From: Escherichia coli
GTDB lineage: Bacteria > Pseudomonadota > Gammaproteobacteria > Enterobacterales > Enterobacteriaceae
DNA: 64,000 nt
NCBI RefSeq assembly: GCF_013122565.1
Contig: NZ_CP053258.1
Direction: 5' to 3' (one strand)
Position numbers and translations under genes: made by a program. Shown here one piece after another: positions 10,339 to 59,681 of the stretch (its first letter is position 1; each line of letters starts with the position of its first letter). The notes under the pieces were generated by a model, which ran no database searches, was not told where the DNA came from, and saw only the letters and a program-made list of their open reading frames with translations.

Positions 10339-11994
10339 ATGACTAATCTTCCCCACTGGTGGCAAAACGGCGTTATCTACCAGATTTATCCAAAGAGTTT
10401 TCAGGACACCACGGGTAGCGGCACCGGCGATTTACGTGGCGTTATCCAACGCCTGGACTATCTGCATAAACTGGGCGTTGATGCCATCTGGCTAACCCCC
10501 TTTTATGTCTCTCCCCAGGTCGATAACGGTTACGACGTAGCGAACTATACGGCGATTGATCCCACCTACGGCACGCTGGACGATTTTGACGAACTGGTGA
10601 CGCAGGCAAAATCGCGCGGAATTCGTATCATTCTCGATATGGTGTTTAACCATACCTCTACCCAACATGCCTGGTTTCGCGAGGCGCTGAACAAAGAAAG
10701 CCCTTACCGCCAGTTTTATATCTGGCGCGATGGCGAACCAGAAACGCCACCGAACAACTGGCGTTCAAAATTTGGCGGTAGTGCGTGGCGCTGGCATGCG
10801 GAAAGCGAACAGTACTATTTGCATCTCTTTGCACCAGAACAGGCGGATCTCAACTGGGAGAATCCAGCGGTACGCGCAGAGCTGAAAAAAGTCTGTGAGT
10901 TCTGGGCCGATCGTGGGGTCGACGGGTTGCGCCTGGATGTGGTGAATCTGATCTCCAAAGACCCGCGTTTCCCTGAAGACCTGGACGGCGACGGGCGTCG
11001 CTTCTACACCGACGGGCCACGAGCACACGAGTTTTTGCACGAGATGAACCGCGATGTGTTTACGCCACGCGGGTTAATGACCGTAGGTGAAATGTCCTCC
11101 ACCAGCCTTGAGCATTGCCAGCGATACGCGGCTCTGACAGGCAGTGAATTGTCGATGACCTTTAATTTTCATCACCTGAAGGTCGATTATCCCGGTGGTG
11201 AAAAATGGACGCTGGCTAAACCTGACTTTGTGGCGTTGAAAACATTGTTCCGCCACTGGCAACAAGGAATGCACAACGTGGCATGGAATGCCTTGTTCTG
11301 GTGTAACCACGATCAGCCGCGCATTGTTTCTCGCTTTGGTGATGAAGGTGAATACCGCGTGCCTGCGGCAAAAATGCTGGCGATGGTGCTGCATGGCATG
11401 CAGGGAACGCCGTATATCTACCAGGGCGAAGAGATTGGCATGACCAACCCGCATTTCACGCGCATTACTGACTATCGCGACGTAGAGAGCCTCAATATGT
11501 TTGCCGAGCTGCGCAACGATGGTCGTGATGCCGACGAGTTATTGGCAATCCTCGCCAGTAAATCCCGTGACAACAGTCGCACGCCCATGCAATGGAGCAA
11601 CGGCGATAATGCCGGGTTTACGGCTGGCGAACCATGGATTAGCATGGGCGATAACTATCAACAAATCAACGTAGAAGCCGCGCTGGCCGATGAGTCCTCG
11701 GTGTTTTACACCTACCAAAAGTTAATCGCACTACGTAAGCAAGAAGCCGTTCTGACATGGGGCAATTACCAGGATCTGCTGCCAAACAGCCCTGTATTGT
11801 GGTGCTATCGCCGTGAATGGAAGGGGCAAACCTTGCTGGTCATTGCCAACCTTAGCCGTGAGATCCAACCCTGGCAGCCAGAGCAAATGCGCGGCAACTG
11901 GCAGCTTGTGATGCATAACTACGAAGAAGCCTCACCACAACCCTGTGCCATGACTTTACGGCCTTTTGAGGCTGTCTGGTGGTTACAGAAGTAA
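10339..11994 (+). CDS. treC: Trehalose-6-phosphate hydrolase (GH13)
   Basis: 551 aa from ATG at 10339 (MTNLPHWWQNGVIYQIYPKSF); ORF-track start at 10192 overlaps treB and is an extension. Confidence 0.93.
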   Translation: MTNLPHWWQNGVIYQIYPKSFQDTTGSGTGDLRGVIQRLDYLHKLGVDAIWLTPFYVSPQVDNGYDVANYTAIDPTYGTLDDFDELVTQAKSRGIRIILDMVFNHTSTQHAWFREALNKESPYRQFYIWRDGEPETPPNNWRSKFGGSAWRWHAESEQYYLHLFAPEQADLNWENPAVRAELKKVCEFWADRGVDGLRLDVVNLISKDPRFPEDLDGDGRRFYTDGPRAHEFLHEMNRDVFTPRGLMTVGEMSSTSLEHCQRYAALTGSELSMTFNFHHLKVDYPGGEKWTLAKPDFVALKTLFRHWQQGMHNVAWNALFWCNHDQPRIVSRFGDEGEYRVPAAKMLAMVLHGMQGTPYIYQGEEIGMTNPHFTRITDYRDVESLNMFAELRNDGRDADELLAILASKSRDNSRTPMQWSNGDNAGFTAGEPWISMGDNYQQINVEAALADESSVFYTYQKLIALRKQEAVLTWGNYQDLLPNSPVLWCYRREWKGQTLLVIANLSREIQPWQPEQMRGNWQLVMHNYEEASPQPCAMTLRPFEAVWWLQK

Positions 11995-12138
11995 ATCTTC
12001 ACTAAGCCCCGGTAATGCCTGTCATTCCGGGGTTTTGTCTGTCAGCATGTTGTTTTTGTTGATTTTTCAACCAGCAAATTCATTAAAAAATTTACATATC
12101 GCTGTAGCGCCCGTCATCCGTACGCTCTGCTTTTTACT

Positions 12139-12152
12139 TTGAGCTACATCAA
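12139..12152 (+). promoter_or_regulatory. Candidate FNR site (TTGAGCTACATCAA) upstream of nrdD
   Basis: One mismatch to TTGAT-N4-ATCAA; nrdDG is FNR-activated in E. coli. Confidence 0.5.
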
Positions 12153-12178
12153 AAAAAGTTCAAACATCCTTGATGCAA

Positions 12179-12230
12179 AGCACTATATATAGACTTTAAA
12201 ATGCGTCCCAACCCAATATGTTGTATTAAT
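12179..12230 (+). promoter_or_regulatory. Candidate tandem NrdR boxes upstream of nrdD
   Basis: CACTATATATAG and CCCAATATGTTGTATT with centres about 32 bp apart, overlapping the putative promoter. Confidence 0.45.
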
Positions 12231-12387
12231 CGACTATAATTGCTACTACAGCTCCCCACGAAAAAGGTGCGGCGTTGTGGATAAGCGGATGGCGATTGCG
12301 GAAAGCACCGGAAAACGAAACGAAAAAACCGGAAAACGCCTTTCACAATTTCTGTGGATAACCTGTTCTTAAAAATATGGAGCGATC

Positions 12388-14526
12388 ATGACACCGCATG
12401 TGATGAAACGAGACGGCTGCAAAGTGCCGTTTAAATCAGAGCGCATCAAAGAAGCAATTCTGCGTGCAGCTAAAGCAGCGGAAGTCGATGATGCCGATTA
12501 TTGCGCCACTGTTGCCGCGGTTGTCAGCGAGCAGATGCATGGCCGCAACCAGGTGGATATCAACGAGATCCAGACCGCAGTTGAAAACCAGCTGATGTCG
12601 GGTCCATACAAACAACTGGCTCGTGCTTACATCGAGTACCGTCACGATCGCGACATTGAACGTGAAAAACGCGGTCGCCTGAACCAGGAGATCCGTGGTC
12701 TGGTCGAGCAGACCAACGCCTCGTTACTCAACGAAAACGCCAACAAAGACAGCAAGGTGATTCCAACCCAGCGCGACCTGCTGGCCGGGATCGTGGCTAA
12801 ACACTATGCACGTCAGCACCTGCTGCCGCGTGACGTGGTGCAGGCACATGAGCGTGGCGATATTCACTATCACGATCTCGATTACTCGCCGTTCTTCCCG
12901 ATGTTCAACTGCATGTTGATCGACCTGAAAGGCATGCTGACCCAGGGCTTTAAAATGGGGAACGCCGAGATTGAACCGCCGAAGTCGATCTCTACGGCAA
13001 CCGCGGTAACTGCGCAGATTATTGCTCAGGTTGCCAGCCATATTTATGGCGGCACCACCATTAACCGTATCGATGAAGTGCTGGCACCGTTTGTCACCGC
13101 CAGCTACAACAAACATCGCAAGACCGCAGAAGAGTGGAACATCCCGGACGCCGAAGGCTACGCTAACTCTCGTACCATTAAAGAGTGCTACGATGCCTTC
13201 CAGTCGCTGGAGTACGAAGTAAACACTCTGCACACCGCCAACGGTCAGACGCCGTTTGTAACCTTTGGTTTTGGTCTGGGCACCAGCTGGGAGTCGCGCC
13301 TGATTCAGGAATCTATCCTGCGTAACCGTATCGCAGGCCTCGGTAAAAACCGTAAAACTGCGGTGTTTCCGAAACTGGTGTTTGCGATTCGCGATGGCCT
13401 GAACCATAAAAAAGGCGATCCGAACTACGACATCAAACAGCTGGCGCTGGAGTGCGCAAGCAAGCGCATGTATCCGGATATCCTGAACTACGATCAGGTA
13501 GTGAAAGTCACCGGTTCGTTTAAAACTCCGATGGGCTGCCGCAGCTTCCTCGGCGTGTGGGAAAATGAAAACGGCGAGCAGATCCACGATGGTCGTAACA
13601 ACCTCGGCGTGATCAGCCTGAACCTGCCGCGTATTGCTCTGGAAGCAAAAGGCGATGAAGCCACCTTCTGGAAGCTGCTGGATGAACGTCTGGTGCTGGC
13701 ACGTAAGGCGCTGATGACCCGTATCGCTCGTCTCGAAGGCGTGAAAGCGCGCGTGGCCCCGATCCTCTATATGGAAGGTGCTTGTGGCGTGCGTCTGAAT
13801 GCTGACGATGATGTTTCTGAAATCTTCAAAAACGGTCGTGCGTCTATTTCGCTGGGTTACATCGGCATCCACGAAACCATTAACGCGCTGTTCGGCGGCG
13901 AGCATGTTTACGACAACGAGCAGCTTCGCGCGAAAGGTATCGCCATTGTTGAACGTCTGCGTCAGGCAGTGGATCAGTGGAAAGAAGAAACGGGTTATGG
14001 TTTCAGTCTCTACAGCACGCCGAGTGAAAACCTGTGCGACCGCTTCTGCCGTCTCGATACTGCTGAGTTTGGCGTGGTGCCGGGCGTGACCGATAAAGGT
14101 TACTACACCAACAGTTTCCACCTCGATGTGGAGAAGAAGGTGAACCCGTACGACAAGATCGACTTTGAAGCGCCTTACCCGCCGCTGGCGAACGGTGGTT
14201 TCATTTGCTACGGCGAGTATCCAAACATTCAGCACAACCTGAAGGCGCTGGAAGATGTCTGGGATTACAGCTATCAGCATGTACCGTATTACGGCACCAA
14301 TACGCCGATCGATGAGTGCTACGAGTGTGGCTTTACCGGTGAGTTCGAGTGCACCAGCAAAGGCTTCACTTGCCCGAAATGTGGTAACCATGACGCCTCC
14401 CGTGTGTCGGTAACTCGCCGCGTGTGCGGATATTTAGGTAGCCCGGATGCACGTCCGTTTAACGCTGGTAAGCAGGAAGAAGTTAAGCGCCGCGTTAAAC
14501 ATTTGGGGAATGGGCAGATAGGTTAA
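12388..14526 (+). CDS. nrdD: Anaerobic ribonucleoside-triphosphate reductase (class III)
   Basis: 712 aa; N-terminal ATP-cone, C-terminal glycyl-radical region and CxxC zinc ribbon (CTSKGFTCPKCG). Confidence 0.97.
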   Translation: MTPHVMKRDGCKVPFKSERIKEAILRAAKAAEVDDADYCATVAAVVSEQMHGRNQVDINEIQTAVENQLMSGPYKQLARAYIEYRHDRDIEREKRGRLNQEIRGLVEQTNASLLNENANKDSKVIPTQRDLLAGIVAKHYARQHLLPRDVVQAHERGDIHYHDLDYSPFFPMFNCMLIDLKGMLTQGFKMGNAEIEPPKSISTATAVTAQIIAQVASHIYGGTTINRIDEVLAPFVTASYNKHRKTAEEWNIPDAEGYANSRTIKECYDAFQSLEYEVNTLHTANGQTPFVTFGFGLGTSWESRLIQESILRNRIAGLGKNRKTAVFPKLVFAIRDGLNHKKGDPNYDIKQLALECASKRMYPDILNYDQVVKVTGSFKTPMGCRSFLGVWENENGEQIHDGRNNLGVISLNLPRIALEAKGDEATFWKLLDERLVLARKALMTRIARLEGVKARVAPILYMEGACGVRLNADDDVSEIFKNGRASISLGYIGIHETINALFGGEHVYDNEQLRAKGIAIVERLRQAVDQWKEETGYGFSLYSTPSENLCDRFCRLDTAEFGVVPGVTDKGYYTNSFHLDVEKKVNPYDKIDFEAPYPPLANGGFICYGEYPNIQHNLKALEDVWDYSYQHVPYYGTNTPIDECYECGFTGEFECTSKGFTCPKCGNHDASRVSVTRRVCGYLGSPDARPFNAGKQEEVKRRVKHLGNGQIG

Positions 14527-14683: not shown

Positions 14684-15148
14684 ATGAATTATCATCAGTA
14701 CTATCCTGTCGACATCGTCAACGGCCCCGGCACTCGCTGCACCCTGTTTGTCTCCGGGTGTGTTCATGAATGCCCCGGTTGCTATAACAAAAGCACATGG
14801 CGGGTAAATTCTGGTCAGCCATTTACCAAAGCAATGGAAGACCAGATCATTAACGATCTGAATGACACTCGTATCAAACGCCAGGGTATTTCCCTCTCCG
14901 GCGGCGATCCGCTGCATCCGCAAAACGTGCCGGATATTCTGAAACTGGTACAACGCATCCGCGCCGAGTGTCCGGGTAAAGACATCTGGGTGTGGACAGG
15001 CTATAAACTCGACGAACTCAACGCTGCGCAAATGCAGGTTGTTGATTTGATTAACGTGCTGGTCGACGGCAAATTTGTGCAGGATTTAAAAGACCCTTCC
15101 CTGATCTGGCGCGGCAGCAGCAATCAGGTGGTGCATCATTTGCGTTAA
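14684..15148 (+). CDS. nrdG: Anaerobic ribonucleotide reductase activating enzyme (radical SAM)
   Basis: 154 aa; radical-SAM cysteine motif CxxxCxxC (CVHECPGC). Confidence 0.95.
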   Translation: MNYHQYYPVDIVNGPGTRCTLFVSGCVHECPGCYNKSTWRVNSGQPFTKAMEDQIINDLNDTRIKRQGISLSGGDPLHPQNVPDILKLVQRIRAECPGKDIWVWTGYKLDELNAAQMQVVDLINVLVDGKFVQDLKDPSLIWRGSSNQVVHHLR

Positions 15149-15439
15149 TCACTCATCCAGTCGTTTAGTCGCGTCTTCATAAACGGCTGAGTTCTCTCTC
15201 TTACCAATAGATATCACCAACACGAGCAACTCTTTATCGTTAACCTGATAAACCAGGCGATATCCCAGTGTGCGCAGCTTAATTTTGTAGCAGTCCGGTA
15301 AATCCCGCAGTTTAGCCGATGGATTGCGCGGCCTTTTTAGCAAATCCTCAAGCTTTTTTTTAAATTGTTCCCGGACTGTCACGCCCAGTTTTTGCCACTC
15401 TTTCAGCGCCCGCGGATCAAAAGCCAGCTCATAGTTCAT
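15149..15439 (-). CDS. RelE/ParE-superfamily type II toxin (RelE-like)
   Basis: 96 aa from ATG at 15439 (MNYELAFDPRALKEWQKLG...YKIKLR..GYRLVYQV...LVLVISIGKRE), resembling RelE; overlaps upstream antitoxin gene by 11 nt; ORF-track start at 15517 is a non-ATG extension. Confidence 0.8.
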   Translation of the reverse strand: MNYELAFDPRALKEWQKLGVTVREQFKKKLEDLLKRPRNPSAKLRDLPDCYKIKLRTLGYRLVYQVNDKELLVLVISIGKRENSAVYEDATKRLDE

Positions 15440-15671
15440 CCAGTCGGACCTTAATGGCCTCTTGTGGGTTGGCCAGTCGTTCCCTGACAGTGCGTAACAA
15501 GGCTTCTTCACTATCACTGACAGTGAGCGTTTTTACCGGCATTCGTCCATTTTCCGCAACGTACTGAAACAGCAGCCGCACTGCTTCAGTAGGCGTGATA
15601 TTTAATTTTTCCAGCACCGCATAAGCCTCATTTTTCAGTTTGTCATCCAGGCGGACGTTAAGTGTGGCCAT
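15429..15671 (-). CDS. RelB/DinJ-family antitoxin
   Basis: 80 aa MATLNVRLDDKLKNEAYAVLEKLNITPTEAVRLL..., resembling RelB; GGAGG RBS upstream; immediately 5' of and overlapping the toxin gene. Confidence 0.8.
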   Translation of the reverse strand: MATLNVRLDDKLKNEAYAVLEKLNITPTEAVRLLFQYVAENGRMPVKTLTVSDSEEALLRTVRERLANPQEAIKVRLDEL

Positions 15672-15695
15672 TATGCCTCCGGTAATTATGAAAAG

Positions 15696-15730
15696 TGTAA
15701 TGCATTATAGCATTACATATGCATTACATT
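15696..15730 (-). promoter_or_regulatory. Putative autoregulatory operator of the RelBE-like module
   Basis: Perfect palindrome TAATGCATTA (15698-15707) plus repeats of GCATTACA at 15710 and 15721, 25-60 bp upstream of antitoxin ATG. Confidence 0.5.
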
Positions 15731-15819
15731 CATTTCTGGAAAACGCCTCGCAAAAATGGCGTCGACACGCAGAAATATGCCGTAGTGAAGAGAGATTTGG
15801 CGGTGATTTTACGAGGGGT

Positions 15820-15854
15820 AAGAAAGCGTTGGGCGGTAACGTTTCACCGCCCAA
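15820..15854 (-). terminator. Putative cybC terminator
   Basis: TTGGGCGG...CCGCCCAA stem (15829-15854) just downstream of cybC stop, T-rich tail on reverse strand. Confidence 0.4.
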
Positions 15855-43224: not shown

Positions 43225-43276
43225 TTCGTTCGATCAACGATCCTGACATGTACGGGATCGTTGATTGTTAAGAGGT

Positions 43277-44770
43277 TCAGTCTTTCAATGGACGTAATTC
43301 ATTGTTGTAACTGGTGTAACTGCCTTCAACGGTAAGTAGATTGCCGTTTTCATCAAGATGCGCCGCATTGAGTTGTCGAGTTTCATTACGCCGCTTCGCA
43401 TCACGAACCAGCCCATCGCCTACGTAATAAATATAGTGGTCATCATGAGCAAAGGTATCTGATAATTGACCATTGGCGTATTTAAACCACGTCCATTGGC
43501 CTTTAAGCTCAAATTTCTCAACCGTGTCTTTATCAATAAAATACGTATAGCGATCGTCATGTGCCAAATAATTTAATGTTGTGCCATCGGGGCTTTTATA
43601 CCACTGCCATTGCCCATTGATATCAAAAATAGTCACATCATCCCTTGCAAGGAAATAAACTTTATTCCCTACAACATTAGCACCTTCCTGTAATTCTTGT
43701 TGCGGGTCTGGTAAATGAATGACCGAAAGCGTTTTTTCGACCGCAGAAATATACTTCACCAGATAGAGCGAATCTTTATATTGCGCCACATTCTTCGTCA
43801 GCGGGCGAAAATATTCCGGATCAACATCAGGAATGGTCGCAACCCGGCAGTCATTGGCACGCCAGGAAGCATCACGCGTCATCCAGGTTACTTTATCCCG
43901 CTGTAGGTCAAATGTATTCCGGCAATCTTTACCGAACGAATAACGTTTCTCCCCGTCCTTATCGCGATAAATCAGCAGGGAACCGGCTATCCAGCGCACA
44001 ATATGAAAGGTGTCCGGATCGGCGTCGATGGCATCTCCGTTCACAAAGACCTGCGATTTTGTCCGCCAGATTGTATCCCAGGGTGCGGGATGCCCCCAAC
44101 TTTCACAACTGTTTGGCAAATAAAGAATATTCCGTTGGGCCCAGGGTTTAATATCAAGAATAGAATATCCTTGGGTACTACCCAACCAGCGTCCCTGAAA
44201 GTAAAGATTGCGACGATCTTTCAGCACATCCGCGGAATCAACTGAATTCATCCTCCCCCCCACCTGTTGCAGCGAATCCATATCGACCTGCTTTTCGCCG
44301 TGATTATCATCCGTGCGTTCGCCGTCAAAATAGAGGCTGTCTTTATCGGCAGCAAAACGCCCCCATGCGCGGAATGTTGCGGCATCGACTTTCGGTGTTC
44401 CCGGCGGGTTCTGAACTATTTTCCCTGCCCATAAAATATGGCGACCATCGGTCAACCAGTCGAAACGCCAACTGCTGTTAGTTCTGATATTAGTGCCAGC
44501 ATCTACCTGAACAAAATCATTATTGATATCATCAGGAGAATCATATTTATCATCAGTGCCGTTGGGTACGCGGCGAAGTTGCTTAAACTTCACCTGCGAT
44601 AAATGAATATCCGGAAAATAGAGTCCGTAACCATCACTATCTTCAACGATATATTTTGTGCCTTGCCCCCACGGCTGGTAGTAAAACGCAGCATAAGGCA
44701 CACCAGAGCAAGCTATTGAAGCGGTTGAAAATAAAGCCAGTGCGAGACAAACAGGTTTAATTGGCAACAT
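43277..44770 (-). CDS. Secreted repeat protein, DKNYY-like, paralog 1
   Basis: 497 aa; signal peptide; recurring D-x-x-x-L/V-Y-F/Y units (DKDSLYF, DRRNLYF, DDRYTYF, DDHYIYYV); shares a core block with the adjacent gene. Confidence 0.6.
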   Translation of the reverse strand: MLPIKPVCLALALFSTASIACSGVPYAAFYYQPWGQGTKYIVEDSDGYGLYFPDIHLSQVKFKQLRRVPNGTDDKYDSPDDINNDFVQVDAGTNIRTNSSWRFDWLTDGRHILWAGKIVQNPPGTPKVDAATFRAWGRFAADKDSLYFDGERTDDNHGEKQVDMDSLQQVGGRMNSVDSADVLKDRRNLYFQGRWLGSTQGYSILDIKPWAQRNILYLPNSCESWGHPAPWDTIWRTKSQVFVNGDAIDADPDTFHIVRWIAGSLLIYRDKDGEKRYSFGKDCRNTFDLQRDKVTWMTRDASWRANDCRVATIPDVDPEYFRPLTKNVAQYKDSLYLVKYISAVEKTLSVIHLPDPQQELQEGANVVGNKVYFLARDDVTIFDINGQWQWYKSPDGTTLNYLAHDDRYTYFIDKDTVEKFELKGQWTWFKYANGQLSDTFAHDDHYIYYVGDGLVRDAKRRNETRQLNAAHLDENGNLLTVEGSYTSYNNELRPLKD

Positions 44771-44802
44771 AGCGTCATCCTGAAGCTGTTAGCGTGAAGA
44801 GG

Positions 44803-45960
44803 TTATTTAAATAAGGGTTTAAGACCGCTCGGGGGTTGCTTCACCGATGACCAACCTCCCTTACCTAAGTTATAACGCAGCCATTTACCTTGTTGGACGT
44901 GCTCTTTCCCAACTCCAGTCGCTTGTTGAGTGTAAAGCTGCCCGTCTGTTGATATAAACGTGTTAGTTAATCCCCAACTACCACCTGCTTCAAGTGAGTC
45001 GGTGAGATCCTCTGGCTTGAGATTAATCAACTCCCCTTCGCCCAGGGCGTTGGTTGTGACTTTATAAATTTGGTTCTTATATAAACCGGTATTGCGAACA
45101 AACAGATAAAAATATTCCGGATCAACTCGCGGCAGCGTTTCATAAATACACTCACTGCCCGCTGGAGTGGCTTCATGTTTGAGCCAGGACACGTTATTCA
45201 GACCAATATTAAAAGGTGCACAGCGATAGCTGGTATCCTCCAGCTCATAGTCACGCTCACCGCTTTTATCGCGATAAACTAAGCGTTCGCCAGGCATCCA
45301 GCGGATTATCTGAAAGGTTTTACGATCGGCGGGCAGCGGCTTGCCATTAACAATCACCTGCGAATTTGTCAGCACAACAAATTGCAGGGCGGAATCATGC
45401 CGCACGATTTGAAACCCGTCAGCGCTTCCCAACCAGTGCCCCTTATGCCAAAGACTATTTTTATCACGCAGTAAATTCCAGATGTCCGTCTCTTCAAGCG
45501 TTGACATATCCACCTGCTTATCACCGCTATTATCATCGGTACGCTGACCGTCAAAATAGATACTGCGTTTATCAGCAGCGAAAGCGCCGAATGCCTGAAA
45601 ACTGGCAGCGTCGACTTTAGGTTTACCGGGGGGGTTTTTCAGGACTTTGCCAGACCAAAGGACAGAGCGTCCATCAGTGAGCCAGGCATGCTGGCAATCC
45701 CCCTCGTCATCACAATCGAACTTATCGGGATTAAAATCTGACAGTAACCGGCAATCTTGTTTATTGGTTAAATTGGCAATGCGCCAGAGGCGGGAAAAGT
45801 TAACGTCCAGCAGTTCGGAGAGGATCTCATCTTTTTGCCCCTTCTCTTCGGCAACGTAAACCGTGCCTTTCTCCTGCTGGCGGTAATAAAAATCCGCGCC
45901 CCAGGAAGGTGAAATGGAGAGCGGTAATGCGGTGATTAATAACCAACTTCGCGTAACCAT
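44803..45960 (-). CDS. Secreted repeat protein, DKNYY-like, paralog 2
   Basis: 385 aa from ATG at 45960 (MVTRSWLLITALPLSISPSWG-ADFYY...); ORF-track start at 45984 is TTG; core block shared with paralog 1. Confidence 0.6.
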   Translation of the reverse strand: MVTRSWLLITALPLSISPSWGADFYYRQQEKGTVYVAEEKGQKDEILSELLDVNFSRLWRIANLTNKQDCRLLSDFNPDKFDCDDEGDCQHAWLTDGRSVLWSGKVLKNPPGKPKVDAASFQAFGAFAADKRSIYFDGQRTDDNSGDKQVDMSTLEETDIWNLLRDKNSLWHKGHWLGSADGFQIVRHDSALQFVVLTNSQVIVNGKPLPADRKTFQIIRWMPGERLVYRDKSGERDYELEDTSYRCAPFNIGLNNVSWLKHEATPAGSECIYETLPRVDPEYFYLFVRNTGLYKNQIYKVTTNALGEGELINLKPEDLTDSLEAGGSWGLTNTFISTDGQLYTQQATGVGKEHVQQGKWLRYNLGKGGWSSVKQPPSGLKPLFK

Positions 45961-46085
45961 AGTGATCTCTGAAATGAGTGGCAAAGATCCACAGTAAGTC
46001 CGCGCCTGGGGGGATGTCGATGACGGTAAGTTTTTTTAGGAATGTATAAAGACAAAGGAGATTGCTGACAAAGTGAGCTTTGTTC

Positions 46086-46200
<115 letters not shown>

Positions 46201-46226
46201 AGACACCCGCAGGTGCCTTAGCGGCA

Positions 46227-47630
46227 TTACTTCGCCATGCGTTTTTTACCAATAAACAACCAGCCCAGCCCCAACGCGATAAACCACAGCGGGGTGACCA
46301 GCAGCGCCTGGCGGGTATCATCTTCCAGCGTCAGCAGCACGATCACAAACACAAAGAACGCCATGCATACCCAGCACATCAGCTTGCCGAGCGGCATCTT
46401 GTAGATCGACTTCTCATGCAGATGAGGACGCTGTTTGCGATACACCAGGTACGAGCAAAGGATAATCGTCCAGACGAACATAAACAGAATCGCGGAAACG
46501 GTTGTAATCATCGTGAACGCGCCAATCACGCTAGGATTCACATACAACATCACCACGCCGCCGAGCAGACAGATACACGAGAAGGTCAATCCTTTCGCGG
46601 GTACTGCGCGCTTAGAAAGTTTAGCGAACGCTTTCGGCGCAACACCTTCCTGCGCCAGACCAAACAGCATACGGCTGGTAGAGAAGACACCGCTGTTAGC
46701 GGAAGACGCCGCAGAGGTCAGCACCACAAAGTTGATCACGCTGGCAGCCGCAGGCAAACCTACCAACACAAACAGTTCAACAAACGGGCTTTTCTCCGGG
46801 ACTACCGAACTCCACGGCGTCACGGACATAATCACAATCAGCGCGAAGACGTAGAACATAATGATACGGATCGGAATGGAGTTAATCGCGCGTGGCAGTG
46901 ATTTCTCTGGATCTTTGGTTTCCGCAGCTGTTGTACCTACCAGCTCAATCCCCACGAAAGCGAAAACCGCTATCTGGAATCCGGCAAAGAAGCCACTTAA
47001 ACCTTTCGGGAACCAGCCGCCGTCATTCCACAAATGCGCGAATGACGCTTCCACACCAGTCGGTGACTGAAAGTGCATCGCCACCATGACCAGGCCGACG
47101 ACAATCAGCGACACAATGGCGACGATTTTGATCATCGCAAACCAGAACTCCATCTCACCGAACATTTTCACGGTGGCGAGGTTAAGCGTCAGCAGCAGCA
47201 CTATCACCGCCAGCGAGGCGACCCAGTCGGAGAGATCGGGGAACCAGAACTGAGCATAAGCCGTGATCGCCACCACGTCTGCCATACCGGTTACAACCCA
47301 GCAGAACCAGTAAGTCCAGCCGGTGAAATATCCTGCCCACGGCCCGAGTAAATCGGAAGCGAAGTCACTAAAAGATTTGTATTCCAGATTCGAAAGCAGC
47401 AATTCCCCCATTGCCCGCATCACGAAAAAGAGCATAAAACCAATGATCATATAAACGAAAATGATCGACGGCCCGGCAAGGCTAATCGTTTTGCCAGACC
47501 CCATAAACAACCCCGTACCAATGGCACCGCCAATGGCAATAAGCTGAATATGTCGGTTTGTGAGATTGCGCCGTAGCGACTGTTCAGCCGGAGCCTGATC
47601 ATCGGCAACGACTTTTACCTGATCTACCAT
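46227..47630 (-). CDS. cycA: D-serine/D-alanine/glycine:H+ symporter (APC family)
   Basis: 467 aa, MVDQVKVVADDQAPAEQSLRRNLTNRHIQLIAIGGAIGTGLFMGSG... Confidence 0.95.
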   Translation of the reverse strand: MVDQVKVVADDQAPAEQSLRRNLTNRHIQLIAIGGAIGTGLFMGSGKTISLAGPSIIFVYMIIGFMLFFVMRAMGELLLSNLEYKSFSDFASDLLGPWAGYFTGWTYWFCWVVTGMADVVAITAYAQFWFPDLSDWVASLAVIVLLLTLNLATVKMFGEMEFWFAMIKIVAIVSLIVVGLVMVAMHFQSPTGVEASFAHLWNDGGWFPKGLSGFFAGFQIAVFAFVGIELVGTTAAETKDPEKSLPRAINSIPIRIIMFYVFALIVIMSVTPWSSVVPEKSPFVELFVLVGLPAAASVINFVVLTSAASSANSGVFSTSRMLFGLAQEGVAPKAFAKLSKRAVPAKGLTFSCICLLGGVVMLYVNPSVIGAFTMITTVSAILFMFVWTIILCSYLVYRKQRPHLHEKSIYKMPLGKLMCWVCMAFFVFVIVLLTLEDDTRQALLVTPLWFIALGLGWLFIGKKRMAK

Positions 47631-48777: not shown

Positions 48778-49416
48778 ATGCCCGGGCGCTTTGAACTAAA
48801 ACCAACCCTGGAGAAAGTCTGGCACGCGCCGGACAATTTTCGCTTCATGGACCCGCTGCCGCCGATGCATCGTCGGGGGATCATTATTGCCGCCATTGTA
48901 TTGGTGGTCGGATTTCTGCTTCCATCTGATGATACGCCCAACGCGCCGGTGGTGACGCGTGAAGCGCAGTTAGATATTCAGTCGCAATCACAACCGCCGA
49001 CAGAAGAACAGCTGCGGGCGCAATTAGTCACACCACAAAATGATCCTGATCAGGTGGCTCCGGTCGCTCCAGAACCTATACAGGAAGGCCAGCCAGAAGA
49101 ACAGCCGCAAACTACCCAAACGCAACCATTCCAGCCAGATAGCGGAATTGATAATCAATGGCGCTCTTACCGTGTCGAACCCGGTAAAACGATGGCGCAG
49201 CTGTTCCGCGACCACGGACTGCCCGCTACCGATGTCTATGCAATGGCGCAGGTAGAAGGCGCGGGTAAGCCGCTGAGTAATTTGCAAAACGGGCAGATGG
49301 TGAAAATCCGCCAGAACGCCAGCGGCGTGGTGACGGGCTTAACCATTGATACGGGGAATAATCAACAGGTCCTGTTTACCCGTCAGCCGGATGGCAGTTT
49401 TATTCGCGCGCGGTAG
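48778..49416 (+). CDS. ytfB: OapA-domain cell division protein YtfB
   Basis: 212 aa from ATG at 48778 (MPGRFELKPTLEKVWHAPDNFRF...); one TM segment. Confidence 0.85.
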   Translation: MPGRFELKPTLEKVWHAPDNFRFMDPLPPMHRRGIIIAAIVLVVGFLLPSDDTPNAPVVTREAQLDIQSQSQPPTEEQLRAQLVTPQNDPDQVAPVAPEPIQEGQPEEQPQTTQTQPFQPDSGIDNQWRSYRVEPGKTMAQLFRDHGLPATDVYAMAQVEGAGKPLSNLQNGQMVKIRQNASGVVTGLTIDTGNNQQVLFTRQPDGSFIRAR

Positions 49417-49428
49417 ATGAATCAACAT

Positions 49429-50064
49429 TCACATGCATGGGGTCACAAGGAGCCAGCTTAAAAGCGTCTCCTTGATAACCTTATGTCTGTTCTCCAAAGC
49501 CTCAGGAGATATCATACTGATGTGATAAACCAACCCTAAAGTATGTTGGTTAAGAATATAATATCCAGCAAGAGCGGCAAGGCTAATGTTTACCTGTAAT
49601 GGATCTATATCTTGCTTAAAGATATTTTGTTTTTTTCCTTCATCAAGCAACCTTTCCATAATCTCTAAATGCGAGTGGTTAATTTCGGGCAAACGAGTTG
49701 ATTTCTTGTAGTGCTCCCCTCGACTTTGGTTTTCGGAATGAATTATCTTTAAAAACCAAGGATTCTTCACATAATAATCCCACGTAAAATCAATAAATTT
49801 TTCAATGGATTGCAATGGGTTTAGTCCAGTAAAGTCCAGATCTCTTTCTTTTTGCCGGATGTCATTACACGTATATTCAAGGACTTCAATAAACAAATTC
49901 TCTTTATTACCAAAATGATGATAAACAGTCTGCTTACTACAACCGGCTGCTTTAACAATATTATCGACCCTGGCACCTTCATAGCCATACTCTGCAAATT
50001 CATTGATAGCGCACAGTAATAATTTTTCTTTCAAAATTTGCACTTTACTAGTATCAAAATACAT
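49429..50064 (-). CDS. TetR-family transcriptional regulator, full length (ytfA position)
   Basis: 211 aa from ATG at 50064 ([58 protein letters not shown]...); divergent from the downstream operon. Confidence 0.75.
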
Positions 50065-50430
50065 CTTCACCCCTCACACTAATCTTGCCAACCTATTATA
50101 TACTCTTTTACCGCGTGACCACGCACATTTTTCATACAAAAATCATCATTATCTTACAGAGCATTAAACCTACTTACATTGTTTCGTTACTGTGAAACAG
50201 ACAGAAAATTTTTCCTTGATGCATATTTGTTAAAAATGGAATATGGCTTTAATTAATTATATTCATATAATGAATATTTAACTATAAATAATTAATTCCA
50301 TTTATTTTCAAAGAGTTATAATTTTAAATATGATCTCCCTCACGAATCAACCAACTAGATGGTTGGTTCAAATAAAATCTATAGGCATCTTTGTCTCCAT
50401 GATGAATCCTGTATTTAAAGAGGTCCAAAA

Positions 50431-51222
50431 ATGAAATCAAAAAAACCCGTTGCTATTATTACCGGTGCTGCCCGTGGTATCGGTAAAGGTTGTGCTATTG
50501 AACTAGCTCGCGCTGGATTTAATCTTCTAATAAATGATCGACCAGATAAAGACAGCATCGAAAAACTTAAAGCAACTCAAAAACTATGTATCGCTGAAGG
50601 TGTTGAAGTCATAACGTTTCCAGCCAACATTGGCGATTTAACGTTACATGAAAAGATGCTCGACGCGGCGCAAAATCAGTGGGAGCGTTTGGACTGCCTG
50701 CTCAATAACGCCGGAATTTCGGTGAAAAAGCGTGGTGATATTCTCGACCTGGAGCCAGACAGTTTCGACGATAACATTGCCATCAATACCCGCGCACCTT
50801 TCTTCCTCGCCCAGGCTTTCAGCAAGCGCCTGTTGGCGCAACCCAAACCAGAAGCTGAACTACCGCATCGCTCAATTATTTTTGTCAGCTCAATTAACGC
50901 CATCATGCTGGCGATGAATCGAGGTGAGTACACCATTGCCAAAACAGCTGTATCTGCCGCTGCCCGCCTGTTTGCCGCACGTCTTTGTGAAGAGCAAATT
51001 GGCGTTTATGAAATCCGCCCAGGTTTAATCAAAACCGATATGACTATTCCAGCAACAGCTTATTACGACGAACTGATCGCTAAGGGGTTAGTGCCATGGG
51101 GTCGTTGGGGTTTTCCACAGGACATCGCCTCCACTGTCCGTGCAATGGCGGAAGGCAAACTGATTTACACCTGTGGTCAGGCGGTCGCCATCGACGGCGG
51201 CTTAAGTATGCCACGCTTCTGA
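50431..51222 (+). CDS. Short-chain dehydrogenase/reductase (SDR)
   Basis: 263 aa; TGAARGIG Rossmann motif and Y-x3-K catalytic pair. Confidence 0.8.
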   Translation: MKSKKPVAIITGAARGIGKGCAIELARAGFNLLINDRPDKDSIEKLKATQKLCIAEGVEVITFPANIGDLTLHEKMLDAAQNQWERLDCLLNNAGISVKKRGDILDLEPDSFDDNIAINTRAPFFLAQAFSKRLLAQPKPEAELPHRSIIFVSSINAIMLAMNRGEYTIAKTAVSAAARLFAARLCEEQIGVYEIRPGLIKTDMTIPATAYYDELIAKGLVPWGRWGFPQDIASTVRAMAEGKLIYTCGQAVAIDGGLSMPRF

Positions 51223-51231
51223 GGCTGAACC

Positions 51232-52074
51232 ATGAGAGATCTGTTACATCGCCCGGATTTATTCAGCATCAATACCGCGACGCTGGGCTATAAAATGCCT
51301 CTGCCCGCCCTTATTGATGCTTGTGCCGCACGCGGCATCGGTGCGATTGCCCCCTGGCGCAGAGAGTTGCAGAGCGAAGATCTTCAGCAAATCGTCCGCC
51401 AGCTTGCCGCCAATAACATGAGCGTTTCTGGTTTATGCCGTAGCACCTACTACACCGCGCCGACGCTGGCAGAGCGCAAGCTGGCGATTGATGATAACCG
51501 CCGGGCGCTGGACGACGCAGCGATGCTGAACGCCGCCTGTTATATGCAGGTGGTTGGCGGTCTGCCAACGGGCACTAAAGATCTGTATGAAGCGCGGGAG
51601 CAAGTGAAAGAAGGGGTTCGCCAGTTGCTGTCACATTCGAAAGATGTCGGCGTGCCGATTGCACTGGAGCCACTGCACCCGATGACTGCTGCCGATCGCT
51701 CTTGCCTCTGCTCGCTACGTCAGGCGCTGGACTGGTGTGATGAACTCGATCCCGATGGTGAGTTTGGCCTCGGCGTGGCGGTCGATGTCTACCACGTCTG
51801 GTGGGATCCGGATCTCACCAGTCAGATCCTGCGCGCTGGAAAACGGATCCTCGCGTTTCATGTTTCCGACTGGCTGGTGCCGACGACCGATCTGGTCAAT
51901 GATCGGGGAATGCCGGGAGATGGCGTCATCAATATTCCGTCAATTCGTCGGCTGGTTGAAAACGCCGGATTTAATGGTTCTATCGAATTAGAAATATTTT
52001 CTTCATTCTGGTGGGAAAAGAATATCAACCAAATACTGGATAAAAGTATTAACGGACTTTCTTATTATTGTTAA
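51232..52074 (+). CDS. Sugar-phosphate isomerase/epimerase (xylose-isomerase-like TIM barrel)
   Basis: 280 aa; family assigned from overall sequence character; 9 nt after the SDR stop. Confidence 0.7.
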   Translation: MRDLLHRPDLFSINTATLGYKMPLPALIDACAARGIGAIAPWRRELQSEDLQQIVRQLAANNMSVSGLCRSTYYTAPTLAERKLAIDDNRRALDDAAMLNAACYMQVVGGLPTGTKDLYEAREQVKEGVRQLLSHSKDVGVPIALEPLHPMTAADRSCLCSLRQALDWCDELDPDGEFGLGVAVDVYHVWWDPDLTSQILRAGKRILAFHVSDWLVPTTDLVNDRGMPGDGVINIPSIRRLVENAGFNGSIELEIFSSFWWEKNINQILDKSINGLSYYC

Positions 52075-52223
52075 ACATCACACTATATTTTTCTCTCGAA
52101 ATTAGTTGATTGTTTAAATTTGCATGTTTTAGAAAGTTATGAGTGAAGTAATAAATCAATAAATTAAATATCTTACAGAGCATTGCGAGTGTTAGGTATT
52201 TATAATCAAATAGGGATTGGCAT

Positions 52224-53765
52224 ATGAGCAAGATTAATACTGCAGAAATACTGGTCGCAGGTATTAAAGATGGCGCAACAATCGCCATTAGCGGTAATGG
52301 CGGTGGAATGGTTGAAGCCGATCATCTACTACAAGCTCTGGAAACACGGTTTCTGGAAACCGGGCATCCATGTAACCTTACGCTTATACACTCATTAGGT
52401 GTAGGAGACCGTGAACACAAAGGCAGTAACCGTTTTGCTCATAAAGGAATGTTAAAGCGTGTTATTGCAGGACATTTCACATGGTCACCAAGAATGCAGG
52501 CTCTGGTTAAGAATAATGAGGTCGAGGCTTATTGCTTTCCTAGCGGAGTTATTCAGACATTATTACGTGAAATAGGCGCTGGACGTCCAGGACTGTTCAC
52601 CCATGTCGGGGTAGGAACTTTTATTGATCCGCGTAATGGAGGAGGGAAATCTAATTCACGAACGACAGAGGATCTGGTAGAGCTAATTGAAATTGATGGA
52701 GAAACAAAGCTACGCTATCGCCCATTTAAAGTTGATTACGCAATTGTGCGCGGTACTTATGCGGATTCACGCGGTAATATTAGCCTGGAAGAAGAAGCCG
52801 TCGATCTGGATTGCAATTCTATAGCTCTAGCTGCCCATAATAGCGGTGGTAAAGTCTTTGTGCAGGTACGTGACATTCTTGAAACAGGTGCGATTGAACC
52901 CAGACGAGTAAAAATACCCGGAATCTTAGTCGATGGCGTCGTGGAATATAGAGATCAACAACAAACATATCTTGGTGGTTACGATCTTACTATCAGCGGC
53001 CAGCATCGTCGTCTTTGTTCTCAAAACTCTATTGAACTGGTTTCAAACCCAATACGTCGATTAATTGCACGCCGTGCAGCACGCGAGTTAGTTGCTGGCG
53101 CATCCACAAACTTTGGCTTTGGCATGCCAGGAGGGATCCCAGGTATTGCTCTGCGTGAAGGAGTCCCTTTTGATACCCTTTGGCTCAGCGTGGAACAAGG
53201 TGTGCATAATGGCATGATGCTGGATGATGCTCTGTTTGGCTGTGCTCGCAATGCTGATGCGATAATTCCTTCTCTTGAGCAGTTTGATTTTTATAGTGGT
53301 GGTGGTGCCGATATAACTTTTCTCGGTATGGGGGAAATGGATCAGTATGGAAACGTGAATGTTTCCCATCTCAACAATAACCTTATCGGACCAGGCGGTT
53401 TTATCGAAATTGCACAGAATGCCCATAAAGTGGTGTTCTGCGGCACGTTTGATGCCAAGGGTAGCAAAATAAACGTCACAAATGCGGGCCTGGAAATCAT
53501 TCAATCCGGCCAGGTAGCAAAACTTGTTTCACAAGTAGAAGAGATAACTTTCAGCGGAGAATATGCGCAACAACGTAAACAGGATGTGTTGTACATTACC
53601 GAGCGCGCTGTATTCCAGTTAACGCCACAGGGTGTGGAACTAATTGAGGTTGCCCCTGGCGTGGACATTGACCACGACATTCTGCCGTATATGGCCTTCC
53701 GTCCAATTATCAAGCACCCACGCCTGATGGAAAGTAGTCTGTTTACGCCGATGGAGGATGCATGA
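52224..53765 (+). CDS. Family I CoA-transferase (fused alpha/beta, YdiF/Pct-like)
   Basis: 513 aa; glycine-rich motifs (ISGNGGGM, GPGGFIEIAQNA); stop overlaps next gene start. Confidence 0.7.
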   Translation: MSKINTAEILVAGIKDGATIAISGNGGGMVEADHLLQALETRFLETGHPCNLTLIHSLGVGDREHKGSNRFAHKGMLKRVIAGHFTWSPRMQALVKNNEVEAYCFPSGVIQTLLREIGAGRPGLFTHVGVGTFIDPRNGGGKSNSRTTEDLVELIEIDGETKLRYRPFKVDYAIVRGTYADSRGNISLEEEAVDLDCNSIALAAHNSGGKVFVQVRDILETGAIEPRRVKIPGILVDGVVEYRDQQQTYLGGYDLTISGQHRRLCSQNSIELVSNPIRRLIARRAARELVAGASTNFGFGMPGGIPGIALREGVPFDTLWLSVEQGVHNGMMLDDALFGCARNADAIIPSLEQFDFYSGGGADITFLGMGEMDQYGNVNVSHLNNNLIGPGGFIEIAQNAHKVVFCGTFDAKGSKINVTNAGLEIIQSGQVAKLVSQVEEITFSGEYAQQRKQDVLYITERAVFQLTPQGVELIEVAPGVDIDHDILPYMAFRPIIKHPRLMESSLFTPMEDA

Positions 53766-55834
53766 GTCAGCTTGATGACACCATCCTTGATGCGCTGACA
53801 CACGTCACTTTCCCAAAGGGGTTTGTGTCAGCAGAGCCAACACCAATTGTCACCGTTGAGGATGTTGATTACCCGATCTGGCACGTTGATGCGCTGGTCG
53901 TTGGTAGCGGCGCAGCAGGATTACGTGCGGCAGTTGAACTTAAACGCCGCCAGCAAAATGTGCTGATCGCTACCGCCGGGTTATATATGGGGACGTCGGC
54001 ATGTTCTGGTTCCGATAAACAGACACTGTTTACCGCCGCTACCGCGGGCAACGGCGACAACTTCACCAAACTGGCAGAGGCACTGGCGAGCGGTGGGGCG
54101 ATGGATCACGACACCGCTTATGTCGAAGCGGTAGGTTCTCTGCACACTCTAGGCGGGTTGCAATATCTTGGTCTGGAATTACCGGAAGATCGCTATGGCG
54201 CGATTCTTCGTTATCAAACCGACCATGACGAAGCTGGGCGTGCAACCTCGTGTGGGCCGCGTACCTCAAGGTTAATGGTGAAAGTGCTGTTGGAAGAAGT
54301 ACAGCGCCTCGCCATTCCAGTGTTGACCAGTGCAACAGTGATTAAACTGCTGCATCAGCGTGACGAAAACGGCGAAGACCGCGTGGCAGGGGCAATCCTC
54401 GCGACCGGTCATCGCGCCCATAACCCATGGGGGCTGGCAATTGTGACTGCGCCCAATGTGGTACTGGCAACGGGCGGACCGGGCGAGCTTTATCGCGACA
54501 GTGTTTATCCACATAAATGCTTCGGCTCGCTGGGGCTGGCGCTGGAGGAAGGTCTGACGCTAACCAATCTGACCGAAAGCCAGTTTGGTATAGGCACACC
54601 GCGCAGCACGTTTCCGTGGAATTTGTCCGGCACCTATGTGCAGGTGATCCCGTATATCTATTCCGTGGATGCTGAGGGTAACGAGTATAACTTCCTCGCG
54701 GATTACTATCGCACCACCCAAGAGCTGGCTTCAAACATCTTCCGTAAAGGCTATCAGTGGCCGTTCCACGCCACGCGGGTAATGGATTTTGGCTCCAGCT
54801 TGTTAGATATGGCGGTGGCGCAAGAACAGCAACATGGTCGTCTGGTGTTTATGGATTTCAATCGTAATCCTGAAGCGGTGCCTGGTGATCTACCCTTCTC
54901 ATTAGATCGACTGGACGACGACGTTCGCGCGTATCTGGAAAATAACGACGCTCTGGCACCATCGCCCATCGAACGGCTGCAACGAATGAATCCGCTGTCT
55001 ATCTCGCTGTATAAGATGCACGGTTACGATCTCACCACGCAGCCATTGCAGTTTGCCATGAATAATCAGCACATGAATGGCGGCATTGAAGTGGATATCT
55101 GGGGACAAACATCCCTGCCCGGTTGTTTTGCAGTGGGAGAAGTAGCCGGTACTCACGGCGTTACCCGACCTGGCGGCGCGGCGCTGAATGCCGGACAGGT
55201 TTTTGCCGTGCGTCTGGCGCGCTTTATTGGTTGCACACAAAAGCGGTCTGTTGAGGAGGATGTCGCGCAGCTGGTAGCCTCATCTCTGCATATAGTCAGA
55301 GAAGTTATCGCTCAGGCACTGGCAAACGAGAACGGAATGGCGCTGGTAACGGTGAAAGAAAAAATCCAGGCGCGAATGTCTGATTACGCTGGATTTATTT
55401 GTCATGCCGATAAAGTTCGTCACGCCACCCGTGACGCCCTGCTGTTAAGTGAGTTTGTACAACAACACGGTTTGACCATCAAACATGTTGGCGAAATTGC
55501 CGAACTATTTATGTGGCGGCATATGGCACTGACTTCTGCCGCCATATTGACACAATTGACGCATTATATTGACGCAGGTGGCGGCAGTCGTGGGGCGCGG
55601 ATAATTATTGATCACTATGGGGAAGGTCTACCACAAACTCGACAGGGTGCAAAAGAAAAATGGCGTTTTAGATTGGAGTCTGAAAATGAAAGAGAATCAC
55701 GAGCAACGATTCAGCTTAACAATGGAGAATTTATAATAAATAAAAACAAGATACGTCAAATAATCAATTTCAAAAATAATTATTTTGAAAAAAATTGGCC
55801 GGAGTTTCTCCTTGGAGAAATCTATATAAAATAA
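53762..55834 (+). CDS. FAD-dependent oxidoreductase (fumarate reductase/succinate dehydrogenase flavoprotein-like)
   Basis: 690 aa; N-terminal dinucleotide-binding motif VVGSGAAGLRAA; ATGA overlap with CoA-transferase gene; AT-rich 3' end. Confidence 0.65.
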   Translation: MSQLDDTILDALTHVTFPKGFVSAEPTPIVTVEDVDYPIWHVDALVVGSGAAGLRAAVELKRRQQNVLIATAGLYMGTSACSGSDKQTLFTAATAGNGDNFTKLAEALASGGAMDHDTAYVEAVGSLHTLGGLQYLGLELPEDRYGAILRYQTDHDEAGRATSCGPRTSRLMVKVLLEEVQRLAIPVLTSATVIKLLHQRDENGEDRVAGAILATGHRAHNPWGLAIVTAPNVVLATGGPGELYRDSVYPHKCFGSLGLALEEGLTLTNLTESQFGIGTPRSTFPWNLSGTYVQVIPYIYSVDAEGNEYNFLADYYRTTQELASNIFRKGYQWPFHATRVMDFGSSLLDMAVAQEQQHGRLVFMDFNRNPEAVPGDLPFSLDRLDDDVRAYLENNDALAPSPIERLQRMNPLSISLYKMHGYDLTTQPLQFAMNNQHMNGGIEVDIWGQTSLPGCFAVGEVAGTHGVTRPGGAALNAGQVFAVRLARFIGCTQKRSVEEDVAQLVASSLHIVREVIAQALANENGMALVTVKEKIQARMSDYAGFICHADKVRHATRDALLLSEFVQQHGLTIKHVGEIAELFMWRHMALTSAAILTQLTHYIDAGGGSRGARIIIDHYGEGLPQTRQGAKEKWRFRLESENERESRATIQLNNGEFIINKNKIRQIINFKNNYFEKNWPEFLLGEIYIK

Positions 55835-55937
55835 ACGCCTTTTAAATCGGTAGCTATTAAATAAATATTTTATGATTTGCAAAATTCACGCTTTTACATT
55901 GTGAGTATTTTCTATTGATAATATCAAAGGTTTAATC

Positions 55938-57218: not shown

Positions 57219-57269
57219 TTTTTATTTTTACCTATAGAATTTTAATCGAAAAAAAATAAAGGAAAGATT

Positions 57270-57749: not shown

Positions 57750-57868
57750 TCTGAGTTTGAAATACGTACCAACGAGTATGCTGGTACGTATTTCTTCGCA
57801 AACGCACTGTTTATGCTCTCTCCCTCATAATGACTGTTTCATCTAACTAATATTTCTAAATAACTGTC

Positions 57869-59137: not shown

Positions 59138-59150
59138 AATTAATTTCCTT

Positions 59151-59642: not shown

Positions 59643-59664
59643 AGTGATAATATTTTATCTTTTT

Positions 59665-59681
59665 ATGGCTATGATAGCCAT
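59665..59681. promoter_or_regulatory. 17-bp perfect palindrome ATGGCTATgATAGCCAT upstream of the HTH gene; candidate operator
   Basis: Read directly; flanked by ATAATATT direct repeats; 25-40 bp upstream of the ATG at 59642. Confidence 0.45.

Follow-up and report, generated by a model that had tools for sequence, protein, structure and literature searches.

The treC–nrdD intergenic region of Escherichia coli is very probably the FNR-activated, NrdR-repressed promoter/operator of nrdDG

The nrdDG promoter of Escherichia coli K-12 has reportedly been characterized by Boston & Atlung 2003, Torrents et al. 2007 and Roca et al. 2008. Two FNR motifs are placed there by Illava et al. 2023, restating Roca et al. 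2008 (PMC10425943), centred on −33.5 (site 1) and −64.5 (site 2). Site 2 is of higher affinity and is both necessary and sufficient for expression; the lower-affinity site 1 boosts expression only with site 2 occupied (PMC10425943, restating Roca et al. 2008). SEC-SAXS on a 54-mer shows both sites filled by wild-type [4Fe-4S]-FNR, as two dimers, and the same paper calls the way in which FNR activates nrdDG a remaining mystery (PMC10425943). FNR ChIP-seq gives a peak at nrdD over TTGATGTAGCTCAA (PatSer 15.68; Myers et al. 2013, PMC3688515), and expression of nrdD and nrdG is FNR-dependent, with reduced values of 0.36 and 0.27, respectively (PMC3688515). The transcription start and FNR positions used below are second-hand, taken from later papers that restate the original work.

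NrdR and DnaA have been studied at nrdDG as well. The nrdDG promoter has two NrdR boxes separated by a 15-bp linker, and NrdR binds a 57-bp nrdDG probe with a Kd of 160 nM (ATP-dATP) or 152 nM (ADP-dATP), with no binding in ATP alone and none to a control probe lacking the boxes (Bimai et al. 2025, PMC12176259). In Salmonella Typhimurium nrdDG, the NrdR1 box and an FNR site overlap, and expression changes when NrdR boxes are mutated (Panosa et al. 2010, PMC2892513). A DnaA ChIP-seq peak of 62-fold coverage lies at nrdD, coordinate 4462739 (Stringer, Fitzgerald & Wade 2024, PMC11317965), and a 2025 study finds NrdD protein raised upon DARS2 deletion. Occupancy, affinities and site-mutation effects are quoted from this literature; our own analysis supplies site positions, their statistics, identity to the tested probes and conservation.

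The region studied here (11995–12387 of the window, by which we mean the whole 64-kb stretch of DNA analysed) is the treC–nrdD intergenic region of E. coli, lying between a 600-codon ORF (stop 11994) and a 712-codon ORF (start 12388). Positions 11990–12400 are matched in 5425 of 5426 complete E. coli genomes, each time flanked by treC and nrdD. Relative to MG1655, the intergenic region is 99% identical, with five substitutions and none inside any site. Its 111-bp core (12130–12240) bears no RefSeq feature and is retained at 99% identity or above in 5007 E. coli genomes.

The intrinsic terminator of treC (treBC operon; 12001–12045, + strand), a hairpin followed by a U-run (UUUUGU), is the upstream limit of the nrdDG control region. 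Its fold has an energy of −18.2 kcal/mol (z −3.2), a stability equalled by 0 of 200 shuffles. Downstream lies nrdD (12388–14526, + strand; ORF, Pfam and RefSeq annotation), encoding the anaerobic (class III) ribonucleoside-triphosphate reductase (Pfam NRDD 8e-193, Gly_radical and ATP-cone), with a Shine-Dalgarno GGAG at 12379–12382 (+ strand). The second gene of the operon, nrdG (14684–15148, + strand; ORF, Pfam and MG1655 annotation), encodes the radical-SAM activating enzyme (Fer4_12 1e-56, Radical_SAM). The E. coli nrdR gene presumably adjoins ribD, far from nrdD.

From the evidence set out below, we assign the region with high confidence as the promoter/operator of the E. coli nrdDG operon, activated by FNR and repressed by NrdR. 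It is a known and well-characterized region, the sole unexplained items being a TATAAT at +26 to +31 and the geometry of FNR activation.

The stronger of the two FNR sites, FNR-2 (FNR site 2; TTGAGCTACATCAA), occupies 12139–12152, from −71 to −58, with its centre at 12145.5 equating to −64.5. It is the reverse complement of the ChIP-bound TTGATGTAGCTCAA and differs from the consensus TTGATNNNNATCAA (TTGAT-N4-ATCAA) at a single position, the same one-mismatch site that a sequence-only reading of this DNA had picked out. One-mismatch matches to the consensus number nine in the 64-kb window, against 2.8 expected. We also scored the window with a symmetric matrix, built from 62 ChIP-bound sites (Myers et al. 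2013, Table S6) with the nrdD site excluded. FNR-2 scores 17.7 bits by this measure, ranking first of 63,987 positions in the window; only 0.04 matches as good are expected per random 64 kb of the same composition.

FNR-1 (FNR site 1; TTGATGCAAAGCAC, 12170–12183, −40 to −27) is a weak auxiliary site centred at 12176.5, or −33.5. Its matrix score is 10.7 bits, rank 11 in the window, and 4.5 matches as good are expected by chance per 64 kb. By sequence alone FNR-1 is within chance and unsupported; the site is taken from the literature. The 54-mer of PMC10425943 is the same as 12135–12188 of the window save for one base, 12160 (C to T), in the spacer between the FNR sites. FNR-1 and NrdR box 1 overlap by 4 bp (12180–12183).

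CRP and FNR recognize similar inverted repeats, and TTGAG-N4-ATCAA might conceivably be used by CRP or another CRP-family protein, with the palindromes downstream serving as H-NS nucleation sites or UP-like elements. The half-site specificities of the two regulators are established, TTGA / TCAA for FNR and GTGA / TCAC for CRP, and both half-sites here follow the FNR pattern. Binding of FNR in ChIP-seq and the dependence of expression on FNR (PMC3688515) also speak against CRP. H-NS is indeed named among the nrdDG regulators (PMC12176259), but NrdR binding is specific and nucleotide-dependent (PMC12176259), and the boxes accompany nrdD in taxa without H-NS (Listeria, actinomycetes). We consider this assignment of the sites to other proteins highly improbable, and retain FNR and NrdR as their occupants.

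NrdR box 1 (GCACTATATATAGACT, 12180–12195) spans −30 to −15, between the −35 and −10 regions, and box 2 (ACCCAATATGTTGTAT, 12211–12226) spans +2 to +17. Counted from the published start, the pair extends from −30 to +17, over the promoter of an operon for a ribonucleotide reductase (nrdD, nrdG). The box centres (12187.5 and 12218.5) are 31 bp apart, leaving a 15-bp linker. The sequence-only reading had described two palindromic AT-rich boxes about 32 bp apart, CACTATATATAG (12181–12192) and CCCAATATGTTGTATT (12212–12227); the boxes themselves hold up, with a spacing of 31 bp instead and an imperfect palindrome in box 2 (CAATA/TGTTG). Box 2 does not lie upstream of the published start but immediately beyond it.

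Each NrdR box has three mismatches to the 16-bp palindromic NrdR consensus ACACWATATATWGTGT (acaCwAtATaTwGtgt), and five matches of this quality occur in the window against 0.53 expected. We also scored the boxes using a matrix built solely from the nrdAB and nrdHIEF boxes (four boxes only). As single boxes in the window, box 1 (14.0 bits) and box 2 (13.4 bits) rank second and third, in keeping with the NrdR character earlier ascribed to them. The pair scores 27.4, whereas the best pairs from 200 random 64-kb sequences have a mean of 12.6 (sd 1.9) and a maximum of 18.8. This places it ~7.9 sd above the random mean, the only significant pair in the window. Bimai et al. 2025 (PMC12176259) used a 57-bp nrdDG probe whose sequence is exactly that of positions 12175–12231. 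A would-be third box, GCTACTACAGCTCCCC (12242–12257), follows box 2 at a distance of 31 bp; we rejected it, as the score of that pair, 15.6, falls in the random range.

We compared nrdD upstream regions using a degenerate pattern for the NrdD peptide YIEYRHDRD, which retrieved 120 genomic loci, every one encoding an NrdD homologue (45–98% identity over the first 200 residues). At least 450 bp of upstream sequence was available for 108 of the 120, making 109 upstream regions with the window included. An NrdR pair, 30–33 bp apart and above the random maximum, is present in 103 of the 109. Its carriers range from Enterobacterales, Vibrionales, Shewanella, Aeromonas and Pasteurellaceae to Listeria and actinomycetes. 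An FNR-type site (cut-off ≥11.86 bits, the lowest score of any training site) lies 38–48 bp upstream of the box 1 centre in 65 of these 103 regions, namely in Enterobacterales, Vibrionales, Shewanella and some relatives.

FNR-1, positioned 11 bp upstream of box 1, is confined to Enterobacteriaceae among the regions compared. Its position reads TTGATGCAAATCAC or a close variant in 18 other Enterobacteriaceae, scoring 15.4–15.6 bits; in Escherichia a T to G change, giving AAGCAC where the Enterobacter-type site has AATCAC, lowers the score to 10.7 bits. The strengths of the two sites are thus reciprocal across genera: FNR-2 scores 17.8 bits in Escherichia, against 11.1–16.3 bits in the other Enterobacteriaceae examined. 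Salmonella is absent from the retrieved loci.

These data bear on whether the sites could be chance motif matches in AT-rich intergenic DNA, devoid of a regulatory role. In favour of this reading, the base composition is indeed AT-rich, FNR-1 taken singly does not exceed chance, and other single FNR-like and NrdR-like matches do occur in the window. Against this stand the rarity of FNR-2-quality matches, the gap between the NrdR pair and the best of 200 random sequences, the retention of that pair in 103 of 109 nrdD promoters across phyla, and published binding and ChIP data on identical sequence. Statistics, conservation and published binding data have thus already refuted the chance reading, to which we give essentially no credence. 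The sites are better taken as working parts of an FNR- and NrdR-controlled promoter.

The published FNR positions imply a transcription start at 12210 (+ strand; 12145.5 + 64.5 = 12176.5 + 33.5), which corresponds to MG1655 coordinate 4462838, and therefore a 178-nt leader. From the published site positions, the −10 hexamer would be TAAAAT (12197–12202, + strand; −13 to −8). This −10 is supported because TANAAT is kept one base after box 1 in 25 of 25 Enterobacteriaceae with this architecture. FNR usually activates from about −41.5 (class II) or −61.5 (class I). With the start taken from the literature, FNR at −64.5 and −33.5 is unusual and fits neither arrangement.

A conserved and perfect −10-like hexamer, TATAAT, lies further downstream (12235–12240, + strand; +26 to +31), separated from NrdR box 2 by 8 bp. 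In 22 of the 25 Enterobacteriaceae the corresponding hexamer reads TANNNT, invariant at positions 1, 2 and 6 and variable at 3–5. We found no description of the TATAAT at +26 to +31 in the literature. That it is an unreported functional element, either a second promoter or a sigma-70-dependent pause upstream of the DnaA boxes, strikes us as distinctly unlikely; if true, such a promoter or pause could help explain the non-canonical FNR positions.

The broader case is that the promoter geometry differs from that published, or that there are two promoters (TATAAT acting as −10 for a start near 12247), or that TATAAT imposes a sigma-70-dependent promoter-proximal pause on transcripts from 12210. 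A second start near 12247 would place FNR-1 at about −70.5 and FNR-2 at about −101.5 (class I-like), with box 2 over its −35 region. Conservation at positions 1, 2 and 6 of TANNNT is the signature of a −10 element, which favours a second promoter or a pause, and an altered geometry can appeal to the non-canonical published positions of −64.5 and −33.5 and to an activation mechanism described as unresolved (PMC10425943). A second promoter would, however, have no recognizable −35 (CCCAAT stands at 17-bp spacing) and is uncalled by a consensus promoter scan. Nor did we find a second nrdD promoter reported, and the published start agrees with the TANAAT kept in all 25 Enterobacteriaceae. On balance we judge this family of explanations unlikely, and proceed with the single published promoter, starting at 12210 under FNR and NrdR control.

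On that basis, dimeric [4Fe-4S]-FNR binds the strong FNR-2 site when oxygen is lacking, giving activation, and FNR also occupies the weak FNR-1 site, boosting expression only when FNR-2 is filled. NrdR on box 1 and box 2 would sit over both core promoter and start site, so that RNA polymerase should be excluded when dATP is plentiful. Owing to the 4-bp overlap between box 1 and FNR-1, competition is expected between NrdR and the downstream FNR dimer. The four site centres are spaced 31, 11 and 31 bp apart, approximately whole helical turns, and would therefore lie on one face of the DNA. A third input would come from DnaA, which binds within the transcribed leader at a consensus box and a double box. 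Oxygen (sensed by FNR), the dNTP pool (sensed by NrdR) and replication status (through DnaA) would thereby all bear on how much of the anaerobic ribonucleotide reductase is made.

The first leader element is a consensus DnaA box, TTATCCACA (exact match; 12276–12284, − strand), at +67 to +75. The second is a double DnaA box, TTAAGAACA-gg-TTATCCACA (12353–12372, − strand; +144 to +163), ending 6 bp upstream of the Shine-Dalgarno. Exact copies of TTATCCACA number three in the window against 0.55 expected, two of which are these (12276–12284 and 12353–12361). The copy at 12353–12361 is paired with TTAAGAACA at 2-bp spacing; that at 12276–12284 is without a recognizable partner. An alignment of 22 Enterobacteriaceae leaders reveals nearly invariant TGTGGATAA at 12276–12284 and CTGTGGATAACCTGT at 12352–12366, with the rest variable. 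Assuming NC_000913.3 numbering, the DnaA ChIP-seq peak at 4462739 falls at about 12309 of the window. The study reporting that peak lists the same double box for it, the sites having been predicted earlier and first demonstrated there (PMC11317965). The direction of the DnaA effect on nrdDG is one that we infer.

DnaA boxes recur beyond E. coli. Two or more consensus boxes are present in 33 of 109 nrdD leaders; a DnaA box adjoins NrdR box 2 in many Vibrio species, and a double DnaA box abuts box 2 in opposite orientation in Yersinia, Serratia, Hafnia, Edwardsiella, Pectobacterium and Morganellaceae. The NrdR pair is an almost universal feature ahead of nrdD, and the DnaA boxes are a recurrent one in Enterobacterales and Vibrio, shifting in position and orientation.

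We considered whether the leader might hold other elements. An Rfam scan of 11900–12500 returned no significant family (best E-value 0.45, far below gathering scores), and the leader RNA (183 nt folded) is no more stable than its shuffles (z −0.86). These two results, together with conservation being limited to the DnaA boxes, lead us to reject a riboswitch or other leader RNA element. A 65-codon ORF on the minus strand (12149–12346) crosses poorly conserved, indel-rich sequence and was set aside, as was a promoter-like match on the same strand (12211–12182), which is at chance level (one found, 0.9 expected). The leader also contains a direct repeat, ACCGGAAAACG, present twice (12307–12317 and 12328–12338) and restricted to E. 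coli and E. albertii.

The interpretation that the sequence-only reading had put on 12130–12240 can be judged against these data. All three strings noted inside the interval are present on the + strand, and the weight-matrix scan ranks the FNR string first and lifts the paired boxes beyond the random maximum. Against the mapped elements, the FNR string coincides with published site 2 and the two boxes with published NrdR box 1 and box 2. Its proposal of anaerobic activation and nucleotide-dependent repression of nrdDG agrees with the literature on FNR ChIP-seq, FNR-dependent expression and NrdR-dATP probe binding. As an account of the control region it was right but incomplete, having missed FNR-1 and the DnaA boxes of the leader. 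Operator sites read by eye were thus real and correctly assigned, a useful calibration for such readings.

The closest comparator is nrdDp of E. coli K-12, which is the same locus. Every site is identical base for base, including 57 of 57 positions of the NrdR probe; the five SNPs lie outside the sites and nothing functional separates the two. Salmonella Typhimurium nrdDG is alike in possessing two NrdR boxes, the first overlapping an FNR site.

The E. coli nrdAB and nrdHIEF operators share the paired 16-bp palindromes and 15-bp linker, with Kd values of 113–160 nM across these operators (PMC12176259). The partner regulators differ: DnaA, Fis, IciA and H-NS at nrdAB, Fur and IscR at nrdHIEF, and FNR at nrdDG. 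A further distinction is that box 1 overlaps an activator site in nrdDG, unlike in nrdAB and nrdHIEF. The DnaA elements resemble nrdAB and other double DnaA boxes in combining a consensus TTATCCACA with a weaker box 2 bp away, bound in ChIP-seq (Stringer, Fitzgerald & Wade 2024). Those of nrdDG are in the transcribed leader (+67 and +144), whereas the nrdAB type is upstream of the promoter.

More distant nrdD promoters, from Vibrionaceae and Shewanellaceae, retain the same order of elements, the NrdR pair being preceded by an FNR site whose distance to the box 1 centre is 42–47 bp. They differ in having a single near-perfect FNR site, with no FNR-1, and in the −10-like sequence containing TAAT that immediately precedes box 1. 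This arrangement suggests that FNR lies near −41.5 in Vibrio and Shewanella and may act there as an ordinary class II activator, in contrast to the −64.5 and −33.5 positions of E. coli nrdDG.

The two FNR sites of the nrdDG control region, between treC and nrdD, are reciprocal in strength between genera. In Escherichia, FNR-2 (12139–12152) is the strong site, scoring 17.8 bits with a weight matrix built from ChIP-bound sites, while FNR-1 (12170–12183), which overlaps NrdR box 1, is weakened to 10.7 bits and carries AAGCAC. The arrangement is the opposite in Citrobacter, Enterobacter, Kluyvera and Cedecea: there FNR-1 is the strong site (15.4 bits, AATCAC), and FNR-2 is weaker, at 12–15 bits. 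This comparison set positions 12170–12183 of the window against nrdD loci of other genomes (L009, L025, L074, L100 and others).

A perfect −10-like hexamer, TATAAT, lies 8 bp downstream of NrdR box 2 (12211–12226), at 12235–12240 (+26 to +31 from the published start). Of 25 Enterobacteriaceae, 22 retain the hexamer in the form TANNNT, positions 1, 2 and 6 being invariant, and we found neither a published description of it nor transcription start site data for it. It could be the −10 of a second promoter, or else act as a sigma-70 pause element.

Elsewhere in the window, two further good matches to the FNR matrix, GTGATTTATATCAA (61934–61947, 17.1 bits) and TTGATTAAAATTAA (61748–61761, 14.9 bits), are separated by 186 bp. 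Another FNR-like site, TTGAGATTAATCAA (45017–45030, 15.3 bits), falls within the ytfE–cycA interval (43225–46240), a region of ~3 kb carrying two hypothetical genes and a short, highly repeated element of which each genome has tens of copies; only 269 genomes contain 80% or more of this interval, with a top identity of 94.4%. A stretch of ~700 bp between nrdG and cybC (15149–15853) is missing from MG1655 and strain TB06051, and is present in 454 of 5,426 E. coli genomes (top identity 97.9%); its counterparts in other genomes are annotated as a RelE/RelB type II toxin–antitoxin pair. A 10.6-kb accessory segment (49400–60000) stands in place of the TB06051 IS609/yjfZ region and encodes a FAD-binding protein, a CoA transferase, an MFS transporter, a sugar-phosphate isomerase and a ketoacyl-ACP reductase, among others. 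Its identity to any of 5,426 complete E. coli genomes is at most 90%, and one genome alone covers at least 80% of it. Within this divergent segment lies an exact DnaA box consensus (54505–54513), the third in the window. The top-scoring single NrdR-like box of the window, ACACTATATAGAGTCT (56534–56549, 15.2 bits), has no partner box at a distance of 30–33 bp. Both this box and the DnaA consensus at 54505–54513 are probably chance matches or non-functional.

The nrdD 5′ leader (from the published start, 12210, to the nrdD start at 12388) holds two DnaA sites on the minus strand: a single box with the exact consensus TTATCCACA (12276–12284) and a double box combining a second exact TTATCCACA with TTAAGAACA (12353–12372). 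These boxes are already known from a 2024 DnaA ChIP-seq study (PMC11317965) and are not new. Both sites are almost unchanged across Enterobacteriaceae, and 33 of 109 nrdD leaders contain at least two consensus boxes. Between the two DnaA sites of the leader, the direct repeat ACCGGAAAACG occurs twice (12307–12317 and 12328–12338), 21 bp apart; only E. coli and E. albertii carry it, and other genera do not conserve it. In many Vibrio species, TTGTGGATAA adjoins NrdR box 2 on its downstream side. Comparison of the 30 nt after box 2 (loci L037, L070, L075, L086, L098, L109, L110 and others) revealed a double DnaA box directly 3′ of box 2 in Yersinia, Serratia, Hafnia, Edwardsiella, Pectobacterium, Budvicia and Morganellaceae, reading TTATCCACA-N3/4-CATCCACA, an orientation reversed relative to that of E. 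coli.
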